Assembly (NCBI GenBank): GCA_963758525.1
Contig: CAVWVQ010000003.1
Coordinates: 864,001-928,000 of the forward strand
Origin: an uncultured Phycisphaerales bacterium
GTDB lineage: Bacteria > Planctomycetota > Phycisphaerae > Tepidisphaerales > Tepidisphaeraceae
Reading direction: 5' to 3'
Length of the DNA: 64,000 nucleotides
The notes below the pieces were generated by a model. That model was not told the DNA's origin. It saw nothing but the letters and a program-made list of their open reading frames with translations, and did no database searches. Position 1 is the stretch's first letter. Every line of letters begins with the position of its first letter. Positions 51,521-63,041 of the stretch are shown here, in pieces. The translations under genes were made by a program, and so were the position numbers.

Positions 51521-51886
51521 TCACGCCGCATCTTCGGCGGACTCATCACGGAATTCGTCACGTTTGCCCAACGATTCTGAGATCGGACTTTCCAGCGCTT
51601 CTTGTTCCGCGCTGCCCGACGGCATCTGGACCGACGGCTCATGCGGCTGAGCTTGCTTCTTCCGTCCGGCGGACTTCTTGCCGCCAATTCGCCCGATCTG
51701 CGACATGTGACCGCGGTTGGCACTGACGGCTTCGCCGCCCTTGCGCCCTGCGGCTCTCGCTTCGTCGGCTGTGAACTGATGCGCAGTCCCTTTCTGATGC
51801 GCTGCTTTCCCCCCTTTGCGGGCAATTTCCTTCTGTCGGGTGCGATCCATCGCAGCAAAACCGCGATTTTTTGGGTTTGACTCCAT
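51521..51886 (-). CDS. KGG-repeat general stress protein
   Basis: RGFAAMD...EIARKGG...EARAAGRKGG...MSQIGRIGG. Confidence 0.85.
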   Translation of the reverse strand: MESNPKNRGFAAMDRTRQKEIARKGGKAAHQKGTAHQFTADEARAAGRKGGEAVSANRGHMSQIGRIGGKKSAGRKKQAQPHEPSVQMPSGSAEQEALESPISESLGKRDEFRDESAEDAA

Positions 51887-52173
51887 CCGCGCTGCTCCTT
51901 TTCGCAAATAATTCTTTGGCAGCTTGCCAAATAAGACATTCGAGTAACGACGATGGCAGGCTCGTTGCAACGGGGATACCAACGGAGCGTCTTCTGCATT
52001 ATTTGGTGTTTATTGCACGTCTGGATTATCGGAGCTTGGATTTTTCGCAAGCTCGATCAGTTGGCAACAATTCTGGTTGGCCCTAAAGTAATGTGTCTAT
52101 CTTGATATAATCGTCCACGGGCAGTGATGGGCGCGCCGGCCCCGCATTTCGCCGTGATGGGAGTGAACTTCCG

Positions 52174-55041
52174 ATGGATCGTTTCGACTTTGTGAACCGC
52201 GCCAACGCGGATTACATGGAGCGGCTCTACGAGCAGTATCAGCGGGATCCGCGCACGCTCGATCAGTCCTGGCAAGCGTACTTCGCCGGATTCGAAAGTG
52301 CCGGTGGCCGCCGCCCCACCGATGAGCATGCCGCGCCGATCACCTTCGGGCTGCACAACCTCGTTCACACGTATCGCGAACTGGGACACTTCGTTGCCCA
52401 GCTCGATCCGCTGGGGCACGATCGCCCGAGCAATCCGTTGCTGGAATTATCCCAGTTCGGCATCAGCACCGACAGCCTCGACGAAGTCGTCGGCCGGGCG
52501 GACTTTTACGGGCCGACCAATGGCACCGTCCGCGATCTGATCGAAAAGCTCCGCGACACGTATTGTCGAACCATCGGTGTGGAGTATCAGGACATCTCCG
52601 ACAAGACCCAGCGCGAATGGCTCGCGCTGCGAATGGAGCCGATCCTCAATCGTCCGCAATTCTCTGCAGAAGAATCGCGGGCGATTTTGTTTCAGCTCGT
52701 TGCCGCGGAGGAATTCGAACAATTCCTTCACAAAAAGTTCGTCGGCGCCAAGCGGTTCAGCCTTGAGGGGGCGGAATCACTGATTGCGCTGCTCAACACG
52801 ATGGTCGATGACGGAGCAAAGCTGAAGGTCGACGAGGTCTGCATCGGCATGTCGCATCGCGGCCGGCTCAACGTTTTGGCGCATGTGCTCAACAAGCCTT
52901 ATGAGGTTCTCTTCAGCGAGTTCATGGGAACGATCGTGGAGCAGACGTCCGAAGGCGACGGCGATGTCAAATACCACCTCGGCTATTCCAACGATCGCCC
53001 CGCCGGCGATCGGACCATTCACCTTGCACTGAGTCCCAATCCCAGCCACCTGGAGCTGATCGATCCGGTCGTGCAGGGAATCGTCAGGGCCAAGCAGAGC
53101 TATAAGGGAGACAAGGACCACGGGCGGGTGGTGCCGCTGTTAATTCACGGCGATGCGGCGTTTACCGGGCAGGGGATCGTCTCAGAAACCCTGAATCTCT
53201 CGGAGCTGGAAGGCTATCGCACCGGCGGGACCATTCACGTCATCGTGAACAACCAGATCGGCTTTACCGCGGTGCCGCGCGAGTGCCGCTTCACGCCGTA
53301 TCCCACTGACGTCGCGAAGATGATCACCGCGCCCATTTTCCATGTAAACGGGGATGACCCCGAGGCGGTGGTGCACGCGGCCCGCCTGGCGATCGCGTTC
53401 CGCGAGGAATTTCGCTGTGACGTGATGATCGACCTGTGGTGCTATCGCCGGTATGGGCACAATGAAACGGACGAGCCGAGTTTCACCCAGCCCGTCATGT
53501 ATCGGGAAATTGCGGCGCACAAGTCCGTGCGCGAGCTCTACTCGGAGCGCCTCATTCGCGAAGGGAAGCTGACCGCCGAGTCAATCGAGCTGATGCGCAA
53601 GACCTGCCGCGAGCGCATGGAATCCGCGGCGAAGCTCGCCAGCGAGTTCCGCCCGCGCCAGCGGACCGCGGCAATGAATCCCCTCTGGAAGGGCTTTTCC
53701 TGCCATACCCACGGAGACTGGAGTGCCAAGACCGCGGTGCCGCGCGAAACGCTGACGCGGATCGCCGAGGGGACCTCGAAGCTGCCGGCGGATTTCACGA
53801 TCCATCCGAAGCTCAAAAAGGTGATGCAGAACCGCTTCGATGCGGTCAAGAGCGGCAAAGGGATCGACTGGGGCTGTGGCGAGATGCTTGCGCTGGGAAG
53901 CCTGCTGCTGGAAGGAACGCCGGTTCGGTTCACGGGCCAGGACGTGCAGCGCGGAACGTTCAGCCATCGCCACGCGGTCCTCCATGATTACAACAATGGC
54001 AAGACCTACACGCCTCTCTCGAATCTCGCGCCGGGTCAGGCGAAGCTGACGATCATCAACACGATGCTTTCCGAATTGGCGGTCCTGGGCTTTGAATACG
54101 GGTTCAGCTCGGGCGATCCGCGCAATCTGGTGATGTGGGAAGCACAGTTCGGCGACTTCGTCAACGGCGCGCAACCCATCATCGACCAGATGATCGCCGC
54201 CGCCGAGAGCAAATGGCGGCTCTCGAACGGCCTCGTATTGCTCCTCCCGCACGGCTTTGAAGGGGCTGGCCCGGAGCACAGCAACGCCTACATGAATCGT
54301 TTCCTCACGCTCTGCGCCGAGGAGAACATGCAGGTCTGCGTGCCGAGCAATCCCGCCCAGTATTTCCACCTGCTGCGACGCCAGATTCATCGCAAGTTCC
54401 GCAAGCCTCTGGTGCTGATGATGCCCAAGTTCCTGCTGCGGTACGAGCCGGCGATGTCCCGCATCGAAGAGTTTGCCGAGGGCTCGGCATTTCAACCGGT
54501 GATCGACGATCCGACGGCCCCGGAACGCGACAGCGTAAATCGGGTGCTCTTTTGCTGCGGCAAAATCTACTATTTCCTCGACGACCGCCGGCGAAAGGAA
54601 AAACTCAAGGGCGTGGCAATCGTGCGGGTCGAGCAGTTGTATCCCTTCCCGAAAAAGGAGATTCAGAACCTGCTGGCGCGCTATCGCAAGGCACGCGACA
54701 TCTGCTGGGTGCAGGACGAGCCGCGCAACCGCGGGGCGTGGAACTACATGCACGAACTTCTCCACGAGATGCTTCCCGATCCGGCGGTGCTGAACTATCA
54801 CGGGCGCGACGCGGCGGCGAGTCCCGCGACCGGCTCTCACAAGATGCACGAGATCGAATCGGAAGAAATCATCTGCCACGCACTCGAGCTGCCGTGCAAG
54901 CCTTCCGATTCGGTTGCGGCTTCGCCCGCCGCGGGATCAGGCGAAGCCGCCCCTCAGACGCCCGAACCCGTATCGACAAAGACCACTGCGGCCGTTGCCG
55001 CGTCCGCGGAAACGCAGCCGGAGGAAGCCAAGAAATCCTGA
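52174..55041 (+). CDS. sucA: 2-oxoglutarate dehydrogenase E1
   Basis: KRFSLEG, GMSHRGRLNVL, GDVKYHLG, HGDAAFTGQG, WEAQFGDF. Confidence 0.97.
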   Translation: MDRFDFVNRANADYMERLYEQYQRDPRTLDQSWQAYFAGFESAGGRRPTDEHAAPITFGLHNLVHTYRELGHFVAQLDPLGHDRPSNPLLELSQFGISTDSLDEVVGRADFYGPTNGTVRDLIEKLRDTYCRTIGVEYQDISDKTQREWLALRMEPILNRPQFSAEESRAILFQLVAAEEFEQFLHKKFVGAKRFSLEGAESLIALLNTMVDDGAKLKVDEVCIGMSHRGRLNVLAHVLNKPYEVLFSEFMGTIVEQTSEGDGDVKYHLGYSNDRPAGDRTIHLALSPNPSHLELIDPVVQGIVRAKQSYKGDKDHGRVVPLLIHGDAAFTGQGIVSETLNLSELEGYRTGGTIHVIVNNQIGFTAVPRECRFTPYPTDVAKMITAPIFHVNGDDPEAVVHAARLAIAFREEFRCDVMIDLWCYRRYGHNETDEPSFTQPVMYREIAAHKSVRELYSERLIREGKLTAESIELMRKTCRERMESAAKLASEFRPRQRTAAMNPLWKGFSCHTHGDWSAKTAVPRETLTRIAEGTSKLPADFTIHPKLKKVMQNRFDAVKSGKGIDWGCGEMLALGSLLLEGTPVRFTGQDVQRGTFSHRHAVLHDYNNGKTYTPLSNLAPGQAKLTIINTMLSELAVLGFEYGFSSGDPRNLVMWEAQFGDFVNGAQPIIDQMIAAAESKWRLSNGLVLLLPHGFEGAGPEHSNAYMNRFLTLCAEENMQVCVPSNPAQYFHLLRRQIHRKFRKPLVLMMPKFLLRYEPAMSRIEEFAEGSAFQPVIDDPTAPERDSVNRVLFCCGKIYYFLDDRRRKEKLKGVAIVRVEQLYPFPKKEIQNLLARYRKARDICWVQDEPRNRGAWNYMHELLHEMLPDPAVLNYHGRDAAASPATGSHKMHEIESEEIICHALELPCKPSDSVAASPAAGSGEAAPQTPEPVSTKTTAAVAASAETQPEEAKKS

Positions 55042-55094
55042 ACGCCGGCAGGCCTCCTCCATCCACGCACCCTTTGTTCCGAAAGAATTTCCCG

Positions 55095-56362
<1,268 letters not shown>

Positions 56363-56580
56363 AGCTGGTCATTGGAACGTGGAACGTGACAGGATTAGGC
56401 CGACCTTCGTGTCCGATTCGTATCTTGGTGCGCATCGAGCTCTCCTGATGGCGCTCTTCCGGGTAGATAGGGCGGGATGAATCCCGCCCTCCTTCGCGGG
56501 ACGGAAACCCATAGCGCTGCGTCGGCGCATTGTTCATGACAACAGCGGCACTGTTCGAGGAATCTGAGAGCCAAACTCAG

Positions 56581-56644
56581 TTTCGTCATTCGTGCTTCGG
56601 ATTTCGGGTTTGATTCTAATTTCGGGTTTCGTCATTCGGGCTTC
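56581..56644. repeat. degenerate heptamer repeat (TTCGKVW)n
   Basis: TTTCGTCATTCGTGCTTCGGATTTCGGGTT...TTTCGGGTTTCGTCATTCGGGCTTC. Confidence 0.75.
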
Positions 56645-56703
56645 CGCGGCGCAGCTTGGATTTCCGCTCCGCAAACGCCTTCCACCACCCGGCGGCCCCT
56701 CCC

Positions 56704-56731
56704 TTGTAAACGTCACATTAACGCCTATAAT
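56704..56731 (+). promoter_or_regulatory. putative sigma70 promoter for the rny leader
   Basis: TTGTAA-16 nt-TATAAT in a GC-rich background. Confidence 0.6.
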
Positions 56732-56940
56732 CGGTTGACGTTGAAGCGATTGCGTTCTCCCTAAGGAAAATGGAACCGCTTCAAACCCGCCGGCGTTCGC
56801 GGATCGCTGGCGGTGTGCAGGCCTCGATGTAATCGCTGCGGATCATGGGTTTTTGAACGCTTCTCCAACGGGAAGCAAGCCGCCGCGATTTCGATACGAA
56901 CGTGGTTTTCCCGGAGTACCCTACCGTGCAAACAGCAATC

Positions 56941-57189
56941 ATGGGAATCTTCAATAGCCTGGCGCTGCTGACGATTGCCCTTCTGCTGCGGGCAGGATTG
57001 ATCGCCGTTCGGCGCTTCGCCGGACGAACAACGCTGACGGTTCCCGTCCGCGTCGCAGCGAGCCATTCCTGCCATCGCGCACGGGTCCGGCCGACGGCAT
57101 TCGACGCCGACGGCCTCTCGTTGCGGGCTCCGCCCACACTCCCGGCGCAACGGCGCCGCGTCAATCCCGGGATCCCCGGGCCAAGCTGA
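56941..57189 (+). CDS. putative leader peptide: N-terminal TM segment + RAPP motif
   Basis: MGIFNSLALLTIALLLRAGLIAVRR...DGLSLRAPPTLP...; lies between the promoter and rny. Confidence 0.55.
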   Translation: MGIFNSLALLTIALLLRAGLIAVRRFAGRTTLTVPVRVAASHSCHRARVRPTAFDADGLSLRAPPTLPAQRRRVNPGIPGPS

Positions 57190-57333
57190 CGAGAGTGACG
57201 CGGGCGCATTCGGCGCACCGTGCGTTCGATCACATCCAGACGTCCCTGCCTGTTGTCATCCGCGCGAACGATGCGAACGGCCCTGCCGTTGGCAATGACG
57301 TGTTGGAGCGCCGTCAAGACGGCGGGAGCGCAC

Positions 57334-58893
57334 ATGTTCGGATATCTCGTCGGCGGAATTCTCATTGGCTTGATCATCGGCGGCGGCGGCCTGTTCGCGC
57401 TGCTGCAACTCTCCGGCCGCAACTACATGGCGCAGGCTCGCGCCGATGCCGAGAAGCTTCGGCAAAACGTCGCGGCCGAGGCACAAAACCGCGCCAAGGA
57501 AATTGAGCTGTCGGCCCAGCAGGATCTGCTCAAGCGCAAGGAACTGTTCGAGCGCGAAAATGACGCCGCCCGGCGCAAGCTTGAAGAACACGATAACCGG
57601 CTCTCCAAACGCGAAGACACACTCGACCGCAAGCTCGACACCCTCGGCGTGAAAGAGCATCAACTTGAAGATCTGGAGAAAAAGCTCATCCAGCGCGACA
57701 AGTCGATGGCGGGGAAGGAAGAGCAGCTCACCGCTGTGTTGCGCGAGCAGCGCGACCGCCTGCTGCAGCTCACCGGCATGTCCCCCGAAGCGGCAAAGGA
57801 AATGCTGCTTCGGCGCATCGAAGATGAATGCAAACAGGAAGCCGGGGGCGTGATCCAGCGCATCACCGAGCAGGCCCAGGAGCAGGCCAAGGAAAAGAGC
57901 CGGATGATCGTGCTCCAGGCGATTCAGCGCTACGCCGCCGAGCAGACCAGCGATCACACCGTCAGCACGGTGGTGATCCCCAGCGACGACATGAAGGGCC
58001 GCGTCATCGGCCGCGAGGGCCGCAACATCCGCAGCTTCGAAAAAGCGACCGGTGTTGACGTCATCATCGACGACACCCCGGGAATGGTCGTCGTCAGTTG
58101 CTTCGATCCGGTCCGCCGGGAGATTGCCCGCATGTCTCTCGAACGGCTCGTGCAGGATGGCCGGATTCACCCGGCCCGCATCGAGGAAATTGTCGTCGCC
58201 ACCAGCAAGGAAATGGACGAAGAGCTGCTCAAGATCGGACGCGAAGCCGTTCAGGAGGCAAACCTGCCCGGCATCGCAAAGCCGATCATTCCCATGCTCG
58301 GCCGGCTCGGATTCCGCACCAGCTACGGGCAAAACGTTTTGCGCCACTCGATGGAAGTCGCGTATCTCGCACAGGTGATGGCCGACGAACTCGGACTCGA
58401 CGGCGCGCTCGCCCGCCGATGCGGCCTGCTCCACGACATTGGCAAGGCAATGGACCACGAAGTGGAAGGCGGCCACCCGCAAATCGGCATGGAATTCCTC
58501 CGCAAGTTCAACGAGAGCGAAGCAGTGCTGAATGCCGCCCTCGCCCACCATGGCGACGTTCCCGCGACAACTCCCTATACGCCCCTGATCATGGCCGCCG
58601 ACGCCATCAGCGCCAGCCGTCCCGGCGCTCGGCGCGAGAGCCTCGAACGGTACGTCACGCGTCTGCGCGAGTTGGAGGATCTCGCCACAAGCTTCGAAGG
58701 CGTCCGCCAGGCGTATGCGATCCAAGCCGGCCGCGAAGTGCGCGTGATCGTTGACGCGAAGCTCGTGGATGACAAGATCAGCGCCAAGCTCGCGCGTGAC
58801 ATCGCCAAGCGCATCGAGACGGAGATGACCTATCCTGGGGAAGTGAAGGTAACCGTGATGCGCGAGGTGCGGACGGTGGAGTATGCGCGGTAA
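57334..58893 (+). CDS. rny: ribonuclease Y
   Basis: N-terminal TM, coiled coil, KH ([13 protein letters not shown]), HD domain (HS..LLHDIGK), [10 protein letters not shown]. Confidence 0.97.
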
Positions 58894-59890: not shown

Positions 59891-61650
59891 TCAGGTTCCC
59901 GCAGGCTCGCACTCCCCCGCCAACGCCTCCAATTGCTCGATCGTCTTAAACGAAGGAGCGCGATCGTCCAGCCAGCGGCAGGTGCGCTGAATCTGCTCGT
60001 GCGCCAGACGCGTGAAACGATCGGCAATGCGCTGATTCGCGGAGCGCGTCCGGCCGGAAACTTCGTTGCTCAATTTTTCCGTGAGCCACGTCGCAATCGA
60101 GTAGCCGCCGAGAACCAGCAGGTCCATTCCGAAGAAGGTGTGATGCACCACCAGTGCAAGCGTCAGAAGATAGGGGGCCGCCTCGGTCAGCCGGGTAAGC
60201 TGCTTGCCGCCCGGCAGGTGCTTGAGCAGGGCCATAACGATTCGCGTGTCGCGCGGGGTGGCGTCCCACCGTTTGTCGAGCCAGCCGCGAAGATCGGAAA
60301 TTTCCTCTGCGGCGATCTTGCCCGCCTCTGCGGGATCAAATCGCTCGCGAGCATACGCGGCCCCTTCAACAGGATCCGCCAGCCACTGCGCCGCCGACGG
60401 ACTGCCCCGCAGTGCATCGTCGATCCGGCTCTGCACAACCGCGAATTGATCGCAGAGAATCGCCCGAAAGTCCGGCGGCTGCTGCGCCTTCCCGCCCTCG
60501 AGCGGAGCAAACGCGCTGGCGGACACTTCGCCCGTGCGAAAATAATCCCACGCCACCCGCGGAACGCGGGCCAGCAGCCCCGGCGCTGGCGCAGCCGATC
60601 GATCATCCGCTGCGGGCCCATGAGATAGAGAATGCTCCGCTGCTGCAGACGCTGGCGAAGCTGTTGCGTAATCGGATTCACATCCACCCCGGGCGGCACC
60701 GTCTCCATCGCACGCAGCACCGCGCACAGACGATCGGCAATCAGCCGGCGCTCGCGCAACGGCGCGATAATCTGATCGTTCAATCGCCCGACAATGTCGT
60801 TCAAACGCGCAGAGACGCCGCGGGCGAGTGCATCATCCCCCGGCGCTGATACCCGCGACACCGCATCCCGCAACGCCGCAAGATTCGCGTCTCTCGGTGG
60901 TTCGTATCCGGCATCATCCCGCGGAACAGCAAAGACGCCAGCAAGCCGTTCCGTGTCCGGCGTGGCTTGCCCCTTCGCATCAGCGCCAGCAAGCTGCCGC
61001 GCATAATCATCCACCGCCGCCTGACTCTCCGCCTTGTTCATCACAAACAATCGCGGCAACTCATATCGCTCTGCCAGCCGGTAGTACGGCAGCAACTCGG
61101 TCATCTGATATTTCTCCGGGGTCACCAGAAAAAGCGCCGCCTGCACCCAGCGAAAAACACGATCCGCCTCGGCATGATGTGCCGGCTGATCGCCATCCAG
61201 ATCAGGCGTATCGATCAGCGTGACACGCGACGTCACATCGCCCGATACCGCCGCGACAAGAAGCGACCCCGGCTTTCCGCGCAGCGGAAACTCCGCCGAC
61301 GCCGTGGTGACGTGCTCAACTCCCAGCCAATCTTCCGGCAGCGCGTCCGCGGAGCCCGCGATCGCGATCGCGCCGGTGGTGAACGTACGACGGAAACTGG
61401 CCGCCGTCAGATTTTGGCCGAGCAGTCGATTAACCAGCGTGCTCTTCCCGGTCCCGGTGCCTCCAAAGATGCCCAAGATTAAATTCCCCGGCTGATTTCT
61501 CGCTTGCAAGTGATAGACGACCGCTGCCGCATCCGCCCGCCATCGGTCGATGGCCAAGCGCAGCGGCCCGCCAATGCGCGACGCCAACGGGACGAGTAAT
61601 TCTCCAATCCGAGACAACACAATTTCCCGGCGATGGAAGCGATCGGACAT
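59891..61650 (-). CDS. dynamin-like/MMR_HSR1 GTPase with C-terminal membrane segment (frameshift near 60585)
   Basis: GGTGTGKST, DTPDLD, NKAE; helical stalk and hydrophobic hairpin in the second frame. Confidence 0.8.
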
Positions 61651-61674: not shown

Positions 61675-63041
61675 AGTCAGGAGTCAGGAGTCAGGAGTCG
61701 GAAGTCAGTGTCCCGAGTTAAAGGATCCAGTTCATAACCCATTCGCGTCTCCCGAATCTGCTCTTGCTTCTCCCTTCTGACTTCTGGCTCCTTGCTTCTG
61801 ACTCCTTTAATCTGGGAGTCAGGAGCCAGGAGTCAGGAGCCAGGGGTCAGTGTCCCGAGTTAAAGGATCCAGTTCATAACCCATTCGCGTCTCCCGAATC
61901 TGCTCTTGCTTCTCCCTTCTGACTTCTGGCTCCTTGCTTCTGACTCCTTTAATCTGGGAGTCAGGAGCCAGGAGCCAGTGTCCCGAGTTAAAGGATCCAG
62001 TTCATAACCCATTCGCGTCTCCCGAATCTGCTCTTGCCTCTCCCTTCTGACTTCTGGCTCCTTGCTTCTGACTCCTTCCCCGATTCCCCTTCTGACTTCT
62101 GGCTCCTTGCTTCTGACTCCTTCCCCGATTCCCCTTCTGACTTCTGGCTCCTTGCTTCTGACTCCTTCCCCGATTCCCCTTCTGACTCCTGGCTCCTTGC
62201 TTCTGACTCCTTCCCCGATTCCCCTTCTGACTTCTGGCTCCTTGCTTCTGACTCCTTCCCTGATTCCCCTTCTGACTTCTGGCTTCTTGCTTCTGACTCC
62301 TTCCCTGATTCCCCTTCTGACTTCTGGCTCCTTGCTTCTGACTCCTTCCCCGATTCCCCTTCTGACTTCTGGCTCCTTGCTTCTGACTCCTTCCCCGATT
62401 CCCCTTCTGACTTCTGGCTCCTTGCTTCTGACTCCTTCCCCGATCTCCCTTCTGACTTCTGGCTCCTTGCTTCTGACTCCTTCCCCGATTCTCCTTCTGA
62501 CTTCTGGCTCCTTGCTTCTGACTCCTTTAATCTGGGAGTCAGGAGCCAGGAGTCAGGAGCCAGTGGCTCCTTGCTTCTGACTCCTTCCCCGATTCCCCTT
62601 CTGACTTCTGGCTCCTTGCTTCTGACTCCTTCCCCGATTCCCCTTCTGACTTCTGGCTCCTTGCTTCTGACTCCTTCCCTGATTCCCCTTCTGACTTCTG
62701 GCTCCTTGCTTCTGACTCCTTCCCCGATCTCCCTTCTGACTTCTGGCTCCTTGCTTCTGACTCCTTCCCTGATCTCCCTTCTGACTTCTGGCTCCTTGCT
62801 TCTGACTCCTTCCCCGATTCCCCTTCTGACTTCTGGCTCCTTGCTTCTGACTCCTTCCCCGATTCCCCTTCTGACTTCTGGCTCCTTGCTACTGGCTCCT
62901 TCCCTGATTCCCCTTCTGACTTCTGGCTCCTTGCTTCTGACTCCTTCCCTGATTCCCCTTCTGACTTCTGGCTCCTTGCTTCTGACTCCTTCCCCGATTC
63001 CCCTTCTGACTTCTGGCTCCTTGCTTCTGACTCCTTCCCTG
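61675..63041. repeat. 1.37-kb hierarchical tandem array: three ~130-140-bp units, then ~21 copies of a 45-bp unit
   Basis: 45-mer CCCCTTCTGACTTCTGGCTCCTTGCTTCTGACTCCTTCCCCGATT; larger unit carries (GGAGTCA)n arms around a core GTGTCCCGAGTTAAAGGATCC... Confidence 0.95.

Follow-up and report, generated by a model that had tools for sequence, protein, structure and literature searches.

A conserved upstream reading frame with a transmembrane segment and a RAPP motif precedes the RNase Y gene in Tepidisphaeraceae: a candidate insertion-sensing arrest peptide

The window, i.e. the whole stretch of 64,000 nucleotides analyzed here, contains rny, the gene of RNase Y, preceded by a leader that carries a small unannotated upstream open reading frame (uORF; Table 1). 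An earlier note on this DNA had placed an 82-codon frame between a sigma70-like promoter and rny; this frame is present at that place, its translation is hydrophobic at residues ~3–23 and contains LRAPP, and its RAPP codons lie where the note had put them. The hydrophobic segment reaches 2.12 in its best 19-residue Kyte–Doolittle window, and the N-terminal anchor of RNase Y itself reaches 2.26 at residues 5–24. The leader is bordered upstream by the end of a 2-oxoacid dehydrogenase E2 gene, and the gene after rny lies on the opposite strand. The E2 gene (2-oxoglutarate dehydrogenase, 55054–56362) appears split over three frames, with the lipoyl part at the end of ORF 54552–55466, the linker in 55289–55690 and the catalytic part in 55763–56362, a breakage that is probably due to assembly frameshifts. 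Directly before the rny promoter, a short T-rich word occurs in two imperfect direct copies (56575–56645). Elsewhere in the window, the minus strand encodes a KGG-repeat stress protein (51521–51982) and a dynamin-like GTPase (60187–61650); a tandem array of about 22 copies of a 45-nt unit (62042–63039, 90% identity) is adjoined by a 128–142-nt repeat made of the same AGTCAGG-type words (61675–62077), and open frames cross this repeat region on both strands.

Table 1. Coordinates of observed and predicted features of the rny leader (numbering of the window)
Feature	Position	Strand	Remarks
Sigma70-like promoter, TTGTAA-16-TATAAT (-35 TTGTAA, -10 TATAAT)	56704..56731	+	Predicted transcription start near 56738
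Hairpin P1	56785..56815	+	Loop with GCGGA(U) at 56799-56804
P2 5' arm, predicted long-range helix	56817..56850	+	Duplex with 57218-57252 at -24.9 kcal/mol
uORF, full open frame	56896..57189	+	97 codons from ACG-AAC-GTG; unannotated
uORF start region GAACGUGG...GGAG	56896..56920	+	Complementary to the RAPP codons (5' arm of tentative helix P4)
Hydrophobic segment, then basic residues	56932..57009	+	Predicted single transmembrane segment, N-out/C-in
uORF, 82-aa version from ATG	56941..57189	+	Frame called in the earlier note
C>G stretch peaking over the predicted stall site	57013..57285	+	Candidate Rho loading site
RAPP, predicted arrest motif	57124..57135	+	Predicted P-site codon 57130-57132, A-site codon 57133-57135
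P2 3' arm, then pyrimidine tract (family consensus CCUUCCCC)	57218..57252	+	Tract could pair with the rny Shine-Dalgarno sequence
AUCCGC, complementary to the P1 loop	57258..57263	+	Predicted long-range pseudoknot; UCCGC 460 nt past the loop
rny Shine-Dalgarno sequence GGGAG	57324..57328	+	
rny, RNase Y, 519 aa, own N-terminal transmembrane anchor	57334..58893	+	Pfam PF12072 (RNase_Y_N), PF00013 (KH), PF01966 (HD)

The ATG at 56941, taken as the uORF start in the earlier note, is probably too late, since no stop codon interrupts the frame between this ATG and an upstream ACG-AAC-GTG at 56896, which fits the N-terminal consensus of the family (M-N-V-V-x-x-G). Of the 67 loci in which this consensus could be located, 59 have it in the RAPP frame; in these 59, the consensus Met position is occupied by ATG in 32 loci, by ACG in 8, by TTG in 3, by CTG in 2 and by GTG in one, the remainder having non-start codons. 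To judge by this match, translation in the window probably starts at 56896 or 56902, or else at a GTG at 56926 behind GGAG; across the family, a GTG two codons downstream of the consensus Met and a GTG or TTG behind GGAG may serve as alternative starts. The window peptide has no Pfam match, and none of 39 uORF members out of 39 matches an NCBIfam model. Being short, often preceded by a near-cognate start and devoid of a family-model match, the uORF would be missed by annotation-based surveys. As to the promoter, one sigma70-like site was found in 3.7 kb versus 0.6 expected from shuffled sequences, which makes the match weak when taken alone; a similar promoter-like site (lenient pattern, without shuffle control) lies 20–130 nt before the GCGGA loop described below in 56 of 74 family loci.

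Comparison with relatives, a check put forward in the earlier note, revealed that a transmembrane (TM) segment followed by RAPP or RGPP is kept upstream of rny at a constant spacing while its codons vary synonymously, and that, among the Planctomycetota loci compared, this arrangement is restricted to the family. The family sample comprised 141 Tepidisphaeraceae genomes, of which 131 gave an rny match; 125 loci, one per genome, were examined, leaving out six matches that began at a contig start or spanned the C-terminal part alone, and 123 loci were usable after removal of one with less than 450 nt upstream and one cut by a contig end (genome G004 is one row in these counts). The outgroup consisted of 74 loci (7 + 67) from other Planctomycetota, 72–73 of them usable, 13 likely family duplicates having been left out. 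An in-frame hydrophobic segment with RAPP or RGPP 25–60 codons later, within 700 nt of rny, was found in 87 of the 123 family loci (87/124 if the locus cut by a contig end is counted as a miss), versus 0/124 on the antisense strand and 0/73 in the outgroup; these counts measure spread and not significance, because related genomes are not independent. With the RDPP, RSPP and RASP variants added, the figures are 99/123 for the family and 0/72 for the outgroup, and 24 of the 123 family loci lack the TM segment and motif; a supported seven-genome clade with a long RNase Y branch (L194, L195, L200–L204) is without them. Any TM-encoding uORF before rny was seen in 1/72 outgroup loci, the same as on the antisense strand.

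The design is also rare within the genome itself. Among 818 RAPP words in the six frames of the 6.47-Mb genome, two have a TM segment at the right spacing and a short tail, and the rny uORF is the sole short ORF of this type. When 301 genomes of the class were searched with a uORF profile, which misses many true members, 19 of 43 family genomes plus the window's own genome were matched, all at rny, and 3 of 257 non-family genomes were matched weakly, within long ORFs. Thus, the worry that R, A and P codons are common in GC-rich DNA is countered by the antisense, outgroup and whole-genome controls. These same controls exclude a chance ORF, and a chance frame or a by-product of 6S RNA has a negligible probability as an account of the locus. 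6S RNA is often found near rny, no 6S RNA was detected in the window's own genome, so that this slot is vacant, and the helices described below were not resolved by alignment-column tests, all of which would suit such an account; nevertheless, 6S RNA matches occur in 9 of 24 family genomes and none of them lies at the rny locus. The proposal that 6S RNA (RF00013) fills the slot was rejected, as the covariance model has no match upstream of rny. Note that, at 225–240 nt, the 6S-like RNAs of the family are longer than those of most other families in this class (about 180–195 nt); their scores against RF00013 are low.

The motif varies in a telling manner. All six Arg, four Ala, four Gly and four Pro codons are used in it, which points to constraint on the protein, and at the second position of intact R-x-P-P motifs Ala (78 loci), Gly (9), Asp (6) and Ser (2) are found; the exceptions are RASP (4), EAPP (1) and PAPP (1). 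According to the mutagenesis of ApdA and ApdP reported in PMC12992588, Gly is fully permissive for arrest at this position, Ser and Asp (and Pro) are partly so, and the Arg is irreplaceable. Within intact R-x-P-P motifs, the natural variation therefore matches the published arrest-permissive residues; the two loci carrying EAPP or PAPP should not stall. On a tree of RNase Y, built by a quick method on 130 columns, poorly resolved, with some frameshifted rows and used for counting motif changes only, strongly supported branches require at least five changes for RGPP and at least three for RDPP, so that both variants have arisen repeatedly. That permissive residues have been reached again and again is our strongest indication that arrest is the trait maintained by selection.

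Outside the motif, the peptide is loosely constrained. An Arg at position -12 is kept in 43 of 87 members and a Pro at -2 in 51 of 87; in an alignment of 39 members, which had been picked for the motif, R, P and P alone are invariant (39/39), mean column identity is 24% and the TM sequence is not conserved. Over 12 close pairs, the uORF has a dN/dS of 0.65, with dN below dS in 11, and a pooled dS of 0.23 versus 0.59 for rny, some rny control values in this comparison being inflated by frameshifted assemblies. These features bear on the idea that the functional product is the small membrane protein itself, e.g. a partner or inhibitor of RNase Y, with RAPP merely limiting its output: a co-transcribed single-TM peptide with the predicted topology of the RNase Y anchor would fit this idea, but the invariance of R, P and P only, the low identity, the unconserved TM sequence and the dN/dS of 0.65 argue against it, and we regard it as very improbable. 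The peptide family has no conserved Cys, no CXXC and no other conserved metal- or redox-binding residues.

The distance between the TM segment and the motif is a further constant. The earlier note had put it at ~40 residues, which stands as a magnitude, the value in the window being 38–45 depending on the TM end chosen; in the family, the distance from the TM end to the Arg has a median of 42 residues (IQR 40–45, range 34–54, the scan allowing 25–60). The tail after the motif has a median of 18 codons, and the TM segments, called from hydropathy only, have a median hydropathy of 2.5. Net charge is higher after the TM segment than before it in 72 of 87 members, a positive-inside bias from which an N-out/C-in topology is predicted, and the anchor of RNase Y appears to have the same layout. 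In the survey of monitoring substrates described in PMC10987492, monitors with a type I TM segment (YidC-type) have short, narrow spacers (median 54 for MifM) and Sec monitors have long, variable ones.

The rny uORF resembles the monitors treated there (MifM, ApcA and other YidC monitors, ApdA, ApdP and the RQH family) in being a small unannotated uORF with an N-terminal TM segment, a narrow spacer of more than 30 residues and a conserved C-terminus bearing a RAPP-type motif (PMC10987492). It differs from them in preceding rny and not sec or yidC, in the ~180 nt that separate the predicted stall from the start of the target gene, in its ~18-codon tail and in the long-range RNA structure predicted around it, and its sequence kinship with them is limited to the motif. 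As no sec or yidC gene lies directly downstream, we do not class it as a Sec/YidC monitoring substrate; no conserved gene, a hidden sec or yidC included, was seen behind rny among the loci listed (n = 44, by eye). The uORF also shares the hallmarks of the RAPP/RGPP uORFs that precede non-Sec genes in Fujiwara et al. (EMBO J 2025, PMC12992588), namely a protein of fewer than 300 aa with a localization signal, RAPP or RGPP near the C-terminus and arrest-permissive variation, although, unlike the leaders described in that paper, its family lacks conserved metal- or redox-binding residues. By these sequence traits, it would belong to the wider RAPP/RGPP class, and stalling is predicted. The register given in Table 1 is borrowed from ApcA, ApdA and ApdP (PMC12992588).

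Beyond what the earlier note contained, sequence comparison points to a conserved RNA structure enclosing the uORF: a hairpin (P1), a long-range helix (P2) and a C-rich stretch. GCGGA is found ~300 nt before RAPP in 83 of 87 loci (17 on the antisense strand) and UCCGC after RAPP in 81 of 87 (13 antisense). A stem of at least 5 bp surrounds the GCGGA loop in all 74 anchored loci, with a mean energy of -16.3 versus -8.2 kcal/mol for shuffled flanks, and the two arms of P1 pair better with each other than with the arms of other genomes (-18.0 versus -10.9, 59 of 74 in the top tenth). The P1 loop and UCCGC are predicted to form a pseudoknot that would close the leader around the uORF. As the GCGGA/UCCGC core was used as anchor, it cannot show covariation; the pair next outside it is canonical in 60 of 74 loci and is of the U-A, U-G, G-C and A-U types. 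The segment directly 3' of P1 pairs ~370 nt downstream, ahead of UCCGC, to form P2 (cognate -20.6 versus non-cognate -15.6; 29 of 63 in the top tenth, versus 10 of 74 for a control segment). In the window, an additional hairpin precedes P1 at the predicted 5' end of the leader (56741–56785).

A third helix, P4, between the RAPP codons and the uORF start is tentative: its energy (-15.3) is better than that of eight other windows (-10.4 to -11.7), and it beats synonymous re-codings in 56 or 49 of 67 loci, depending on which of two codon tables is used, but it dominates (p > 0.5) only 6 of 25 whole-leader ensembles and has p = 0.02 in the window. P4 pairing would explain why GCT encodes 44 of the 78 RAPP alanines versus 68 of 1007 alanines in rny. 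Complementarity between the pyrimidine tract and the rny Shine-Dalgarno sequence (SD) is without clear covariation (-12.0 cognate versus -11.1; 5 of 56 in the top tenth). For the leader in the window, the minimum-energy fold does not contain the long-range pairs. Three other candidates were not supported: the RAPP codons as anti-SD for rny (24/67), a conserved hairpin at the uORF stop (36/70) and a pairing of the anti-SD with the uORF's own SD, which gave no signal.

Column-wise covariation analysis (G-test with APC on MAFFT alignments of both arms) did not recover the helices, three pairs, one of them in P1, lying above the background maximum, and RNAalifold predicted no pair on a gapless 52-row alignment of P1, because the lengths of the P1 loop shift the register. 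Since gappy alignments defeated the column tests, the helices are based solely on the alignment-free cognate/non-cognate and shuffle comparisons; in a first duplex test with poorer anchors, the cognate partner ranked in the top three for 13 of 79 loci. When the RNA motif alone was used as the query, 37 metagenome matches were obtained, four with rny downstream and five with TM + RAPP. Six of them (two identical) combine a strong P1 with a position outside long ORFs: all six have a TM frame, five have RAPP and four have rny. Among ten matches examined further, five lie within long ORFs and look like chance.

The RNA could itself be the sensor, as a riboswitch-like or protein-binding pseudoknot, with the stalled ribosome acting as a constitutive timer or spacer for the order of folding. 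The two most conserved non-coding words are indeed complementary and far apart, complementarity in P1 and P2 is genome-specific, and the low synonymous divergence of the uORF and the GCT bias at the RAPP alanine would fit this reading. Against this, a timer would need neither a TM segment at a fixed spacing nor a fixed polarity, the leader has no Rfam match and few unpaired bases are invariant outside the pairing words; altogether, we find a sensor made of RNA improbable.

The explanation that we favor, to which we give slightly better than an even chance, is that the leader peptide is an insertion monitor that adjusts RNase Y synthesis, the stalled state being the ON state for rny. Its steps differ in strength. 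Arrest of the ribosome at RAPP is highly probable: by analogy with ApdA, ApdP and ApcA, the ribosome would stall with the first Pro of the motif in the P site. RAPP alone is insufficient, as most of the RAPP-like proteins of E. coli and B. subtilis tested in PMC10987492 did not stall. Release by membrane insertion is likely, although less assured than the arrest: by analogy with MifM-type peptides, insertion of the N-out TM segment via YidC or SecYEG would pull the stalled ribosome free. The TM segment of the uORF would act as a mimic, or decoy, of RNase Y's own anchor, so that more RNase Y would be made when the insertion route of RNase Y itself lags.

The leader is likely to relay release to rny, and the direction of this output is the least certain part of the explanation. 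The ~200 nt between stall site and rny start, raised as a caveat in the earlier note, are real: 198 nt separate the end of RAPP from the rny ATG in the window, with a median of 180 nt in the family, so that direct unmasking of the SD, as in SecM, cannot apply. Nor did folding with ribosome footprints in 36 loci (every second anchored locus, pseudoknot-free model) indicate a direction or a path from the stall to rny, since access to the SD changed in four loci for the stalled and in three for the run-through ribosome. In SecM, MifM and CruR, the stall corresponds to the ON state. The C>G bias of the leader peaks over the predicted stall site (C 0.46 versus G 0.28 at 57091–57168), and between RAPP and the SD, 76 of 87 loci have more C than G, compared with 38 and 36 of the 87 for two control regions, part of this C-richness being due to Pro codons. 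A rho gene passes the cut-off in 21 of 25 genomes, that of the window included; the window's own genome (G000:C3:3994036-3995112) and most relatives have a further, shorter rho-like gene that scores below the family cut-off.

This arrangement is reminiscent of CruR (Bp2923, DUF2946) of Bordetella pertussis, likewise a RAPP uORF with a C>G bubble extending into the intergenic region, whose stall turns expression ON via Rho exclusion (PMC9426467). CruR senses copper by a CXXC motif, which the rny peptide lacks (PMC9426467), and DUF2946 is not among the Pfam matches of 39 uORF members. The C>G peak, the presence of Rho and the likeness to CruR led us to choose the ON direction. In our model, in which the ON state through Rho exclusion is borrowed from CruR, the stalled ribosome would mask the C-rich stretch, exclude Rho and keep P4 from forming; once the ribosome has been released and has run off, the uncovered leader would cause termination or would refold (P4, P2, pseudoknot), and rny expression would drop. 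P4, which would hide the C-rich stretch from Rho, counts against Rho exclusion. In four loci (L006, L007, L142, L176), the uORF tail enters or passes the 3' arm of P2, so that a released ribosome would melt P2 directly; elsewhere, the uORF mostly stops about 40–65 nt before UCCGC.

An alternative that requires no path from the stall site to the SD is that a real stall and an inserted TM segment hold the rny mRNA at the membrane, where RNase Y would cut its own leader in a negative autoregulatory loop. Such a tether would parallel XBP1u, in which a hydrophobic segment and a translational pause bring the mRNA to the membrane-bound ribonuclease IRE1 for cleavage (PMC6624018). RNase Y of B. subtilis regulates itself through cleavage of the 5' UTR of its own mRNA (PMC10303841), and some substrates require the membrane attachment of RNase Y (PMC11313650); rny control through its own leader would be common to both cases, although the abstract of PMC10303841 describes cleavage and mentions no uORF. 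Moreover, counted from the P site, the TM segment ends ~44–47 residues away, a distance at which pulling comes to an end and the minimum length for a tether that would allow the TM segment to be seated in the bilayer. Yet the eukaryotic XBP1u segment is weak, non-inserting and 52 residues from the pause, beyond the force window (the force peaks at 43 in the construct of PMC6624018), whereas that of the rny uORF is strongly hydrophobic (median 2.5) with a spacer of ~42–44, near 43; and RNase Y's own TM segment would bring the rny mRNA to the membrane regardless. Self-cleavage through a tether therefore strikes us as unlikely, if still the most serious competitor of the insertion monitor.

The conserved rny leader peptide is real and apparently undescribed. 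The view of the earlier note that such motifs are known mainly upstream of sec and yidC genes is dated, RAPP/RGPP uORFs before non-Sec genes having been described (PMC12992588); its remark that the rny context is not known to be described agrees with what we found, RNase Y not appearing among the published RAPP/RGPP uORF targets. More specifically, neither RNase Y nor rny occurs in the main text and searchable supplements of PMC12992588, which include in part the table of downstream products of its Fig. 4B, the remaining supplements being a place where RNase Y could be listed; RNase Y is absent from the text of PMC10987492, and a literature search, with subscription papers outside its scope, returned no arrest peptide or uORF before rny.

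The arrest peptides known to be released by force regulate, by feedback, the machinery of secretion or insertion, and most of the more recent RAPP leaders stand before metal and redox genes. If true, a monitor placed before the enzyme that initiates bulk mRNA decay would link membrane-protein biogenesis to transcriptome turnover. We tentatively raise the possibility, to which we give somewhat less than an even chance, that membrane-insertion stress is connected in this way with global mRNA decay, a stalled, membrane-anchored ribosome in an end-paired, pseudoknotted leader setting the RNase Y level either by decoy-insertion sensing or, as a prokaryotic counterpart of XBP1u–IRE1, by delivery of the mRNA to RNase Y for cleavage. 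Two of the questions left open in PMC12992588 are whether force releases arrest beyond localization pathways and how arrest reaches downstream genes; with about 100 natural variants, recurrent exchanges among A, G, D and S, a spacer of fixed length and RNA helices that have been mapped, the rny leader makes both testable. Finally, rny is present twice in one family genome, the additional copy being more distant (56% identity; G116:C410:156-1697).
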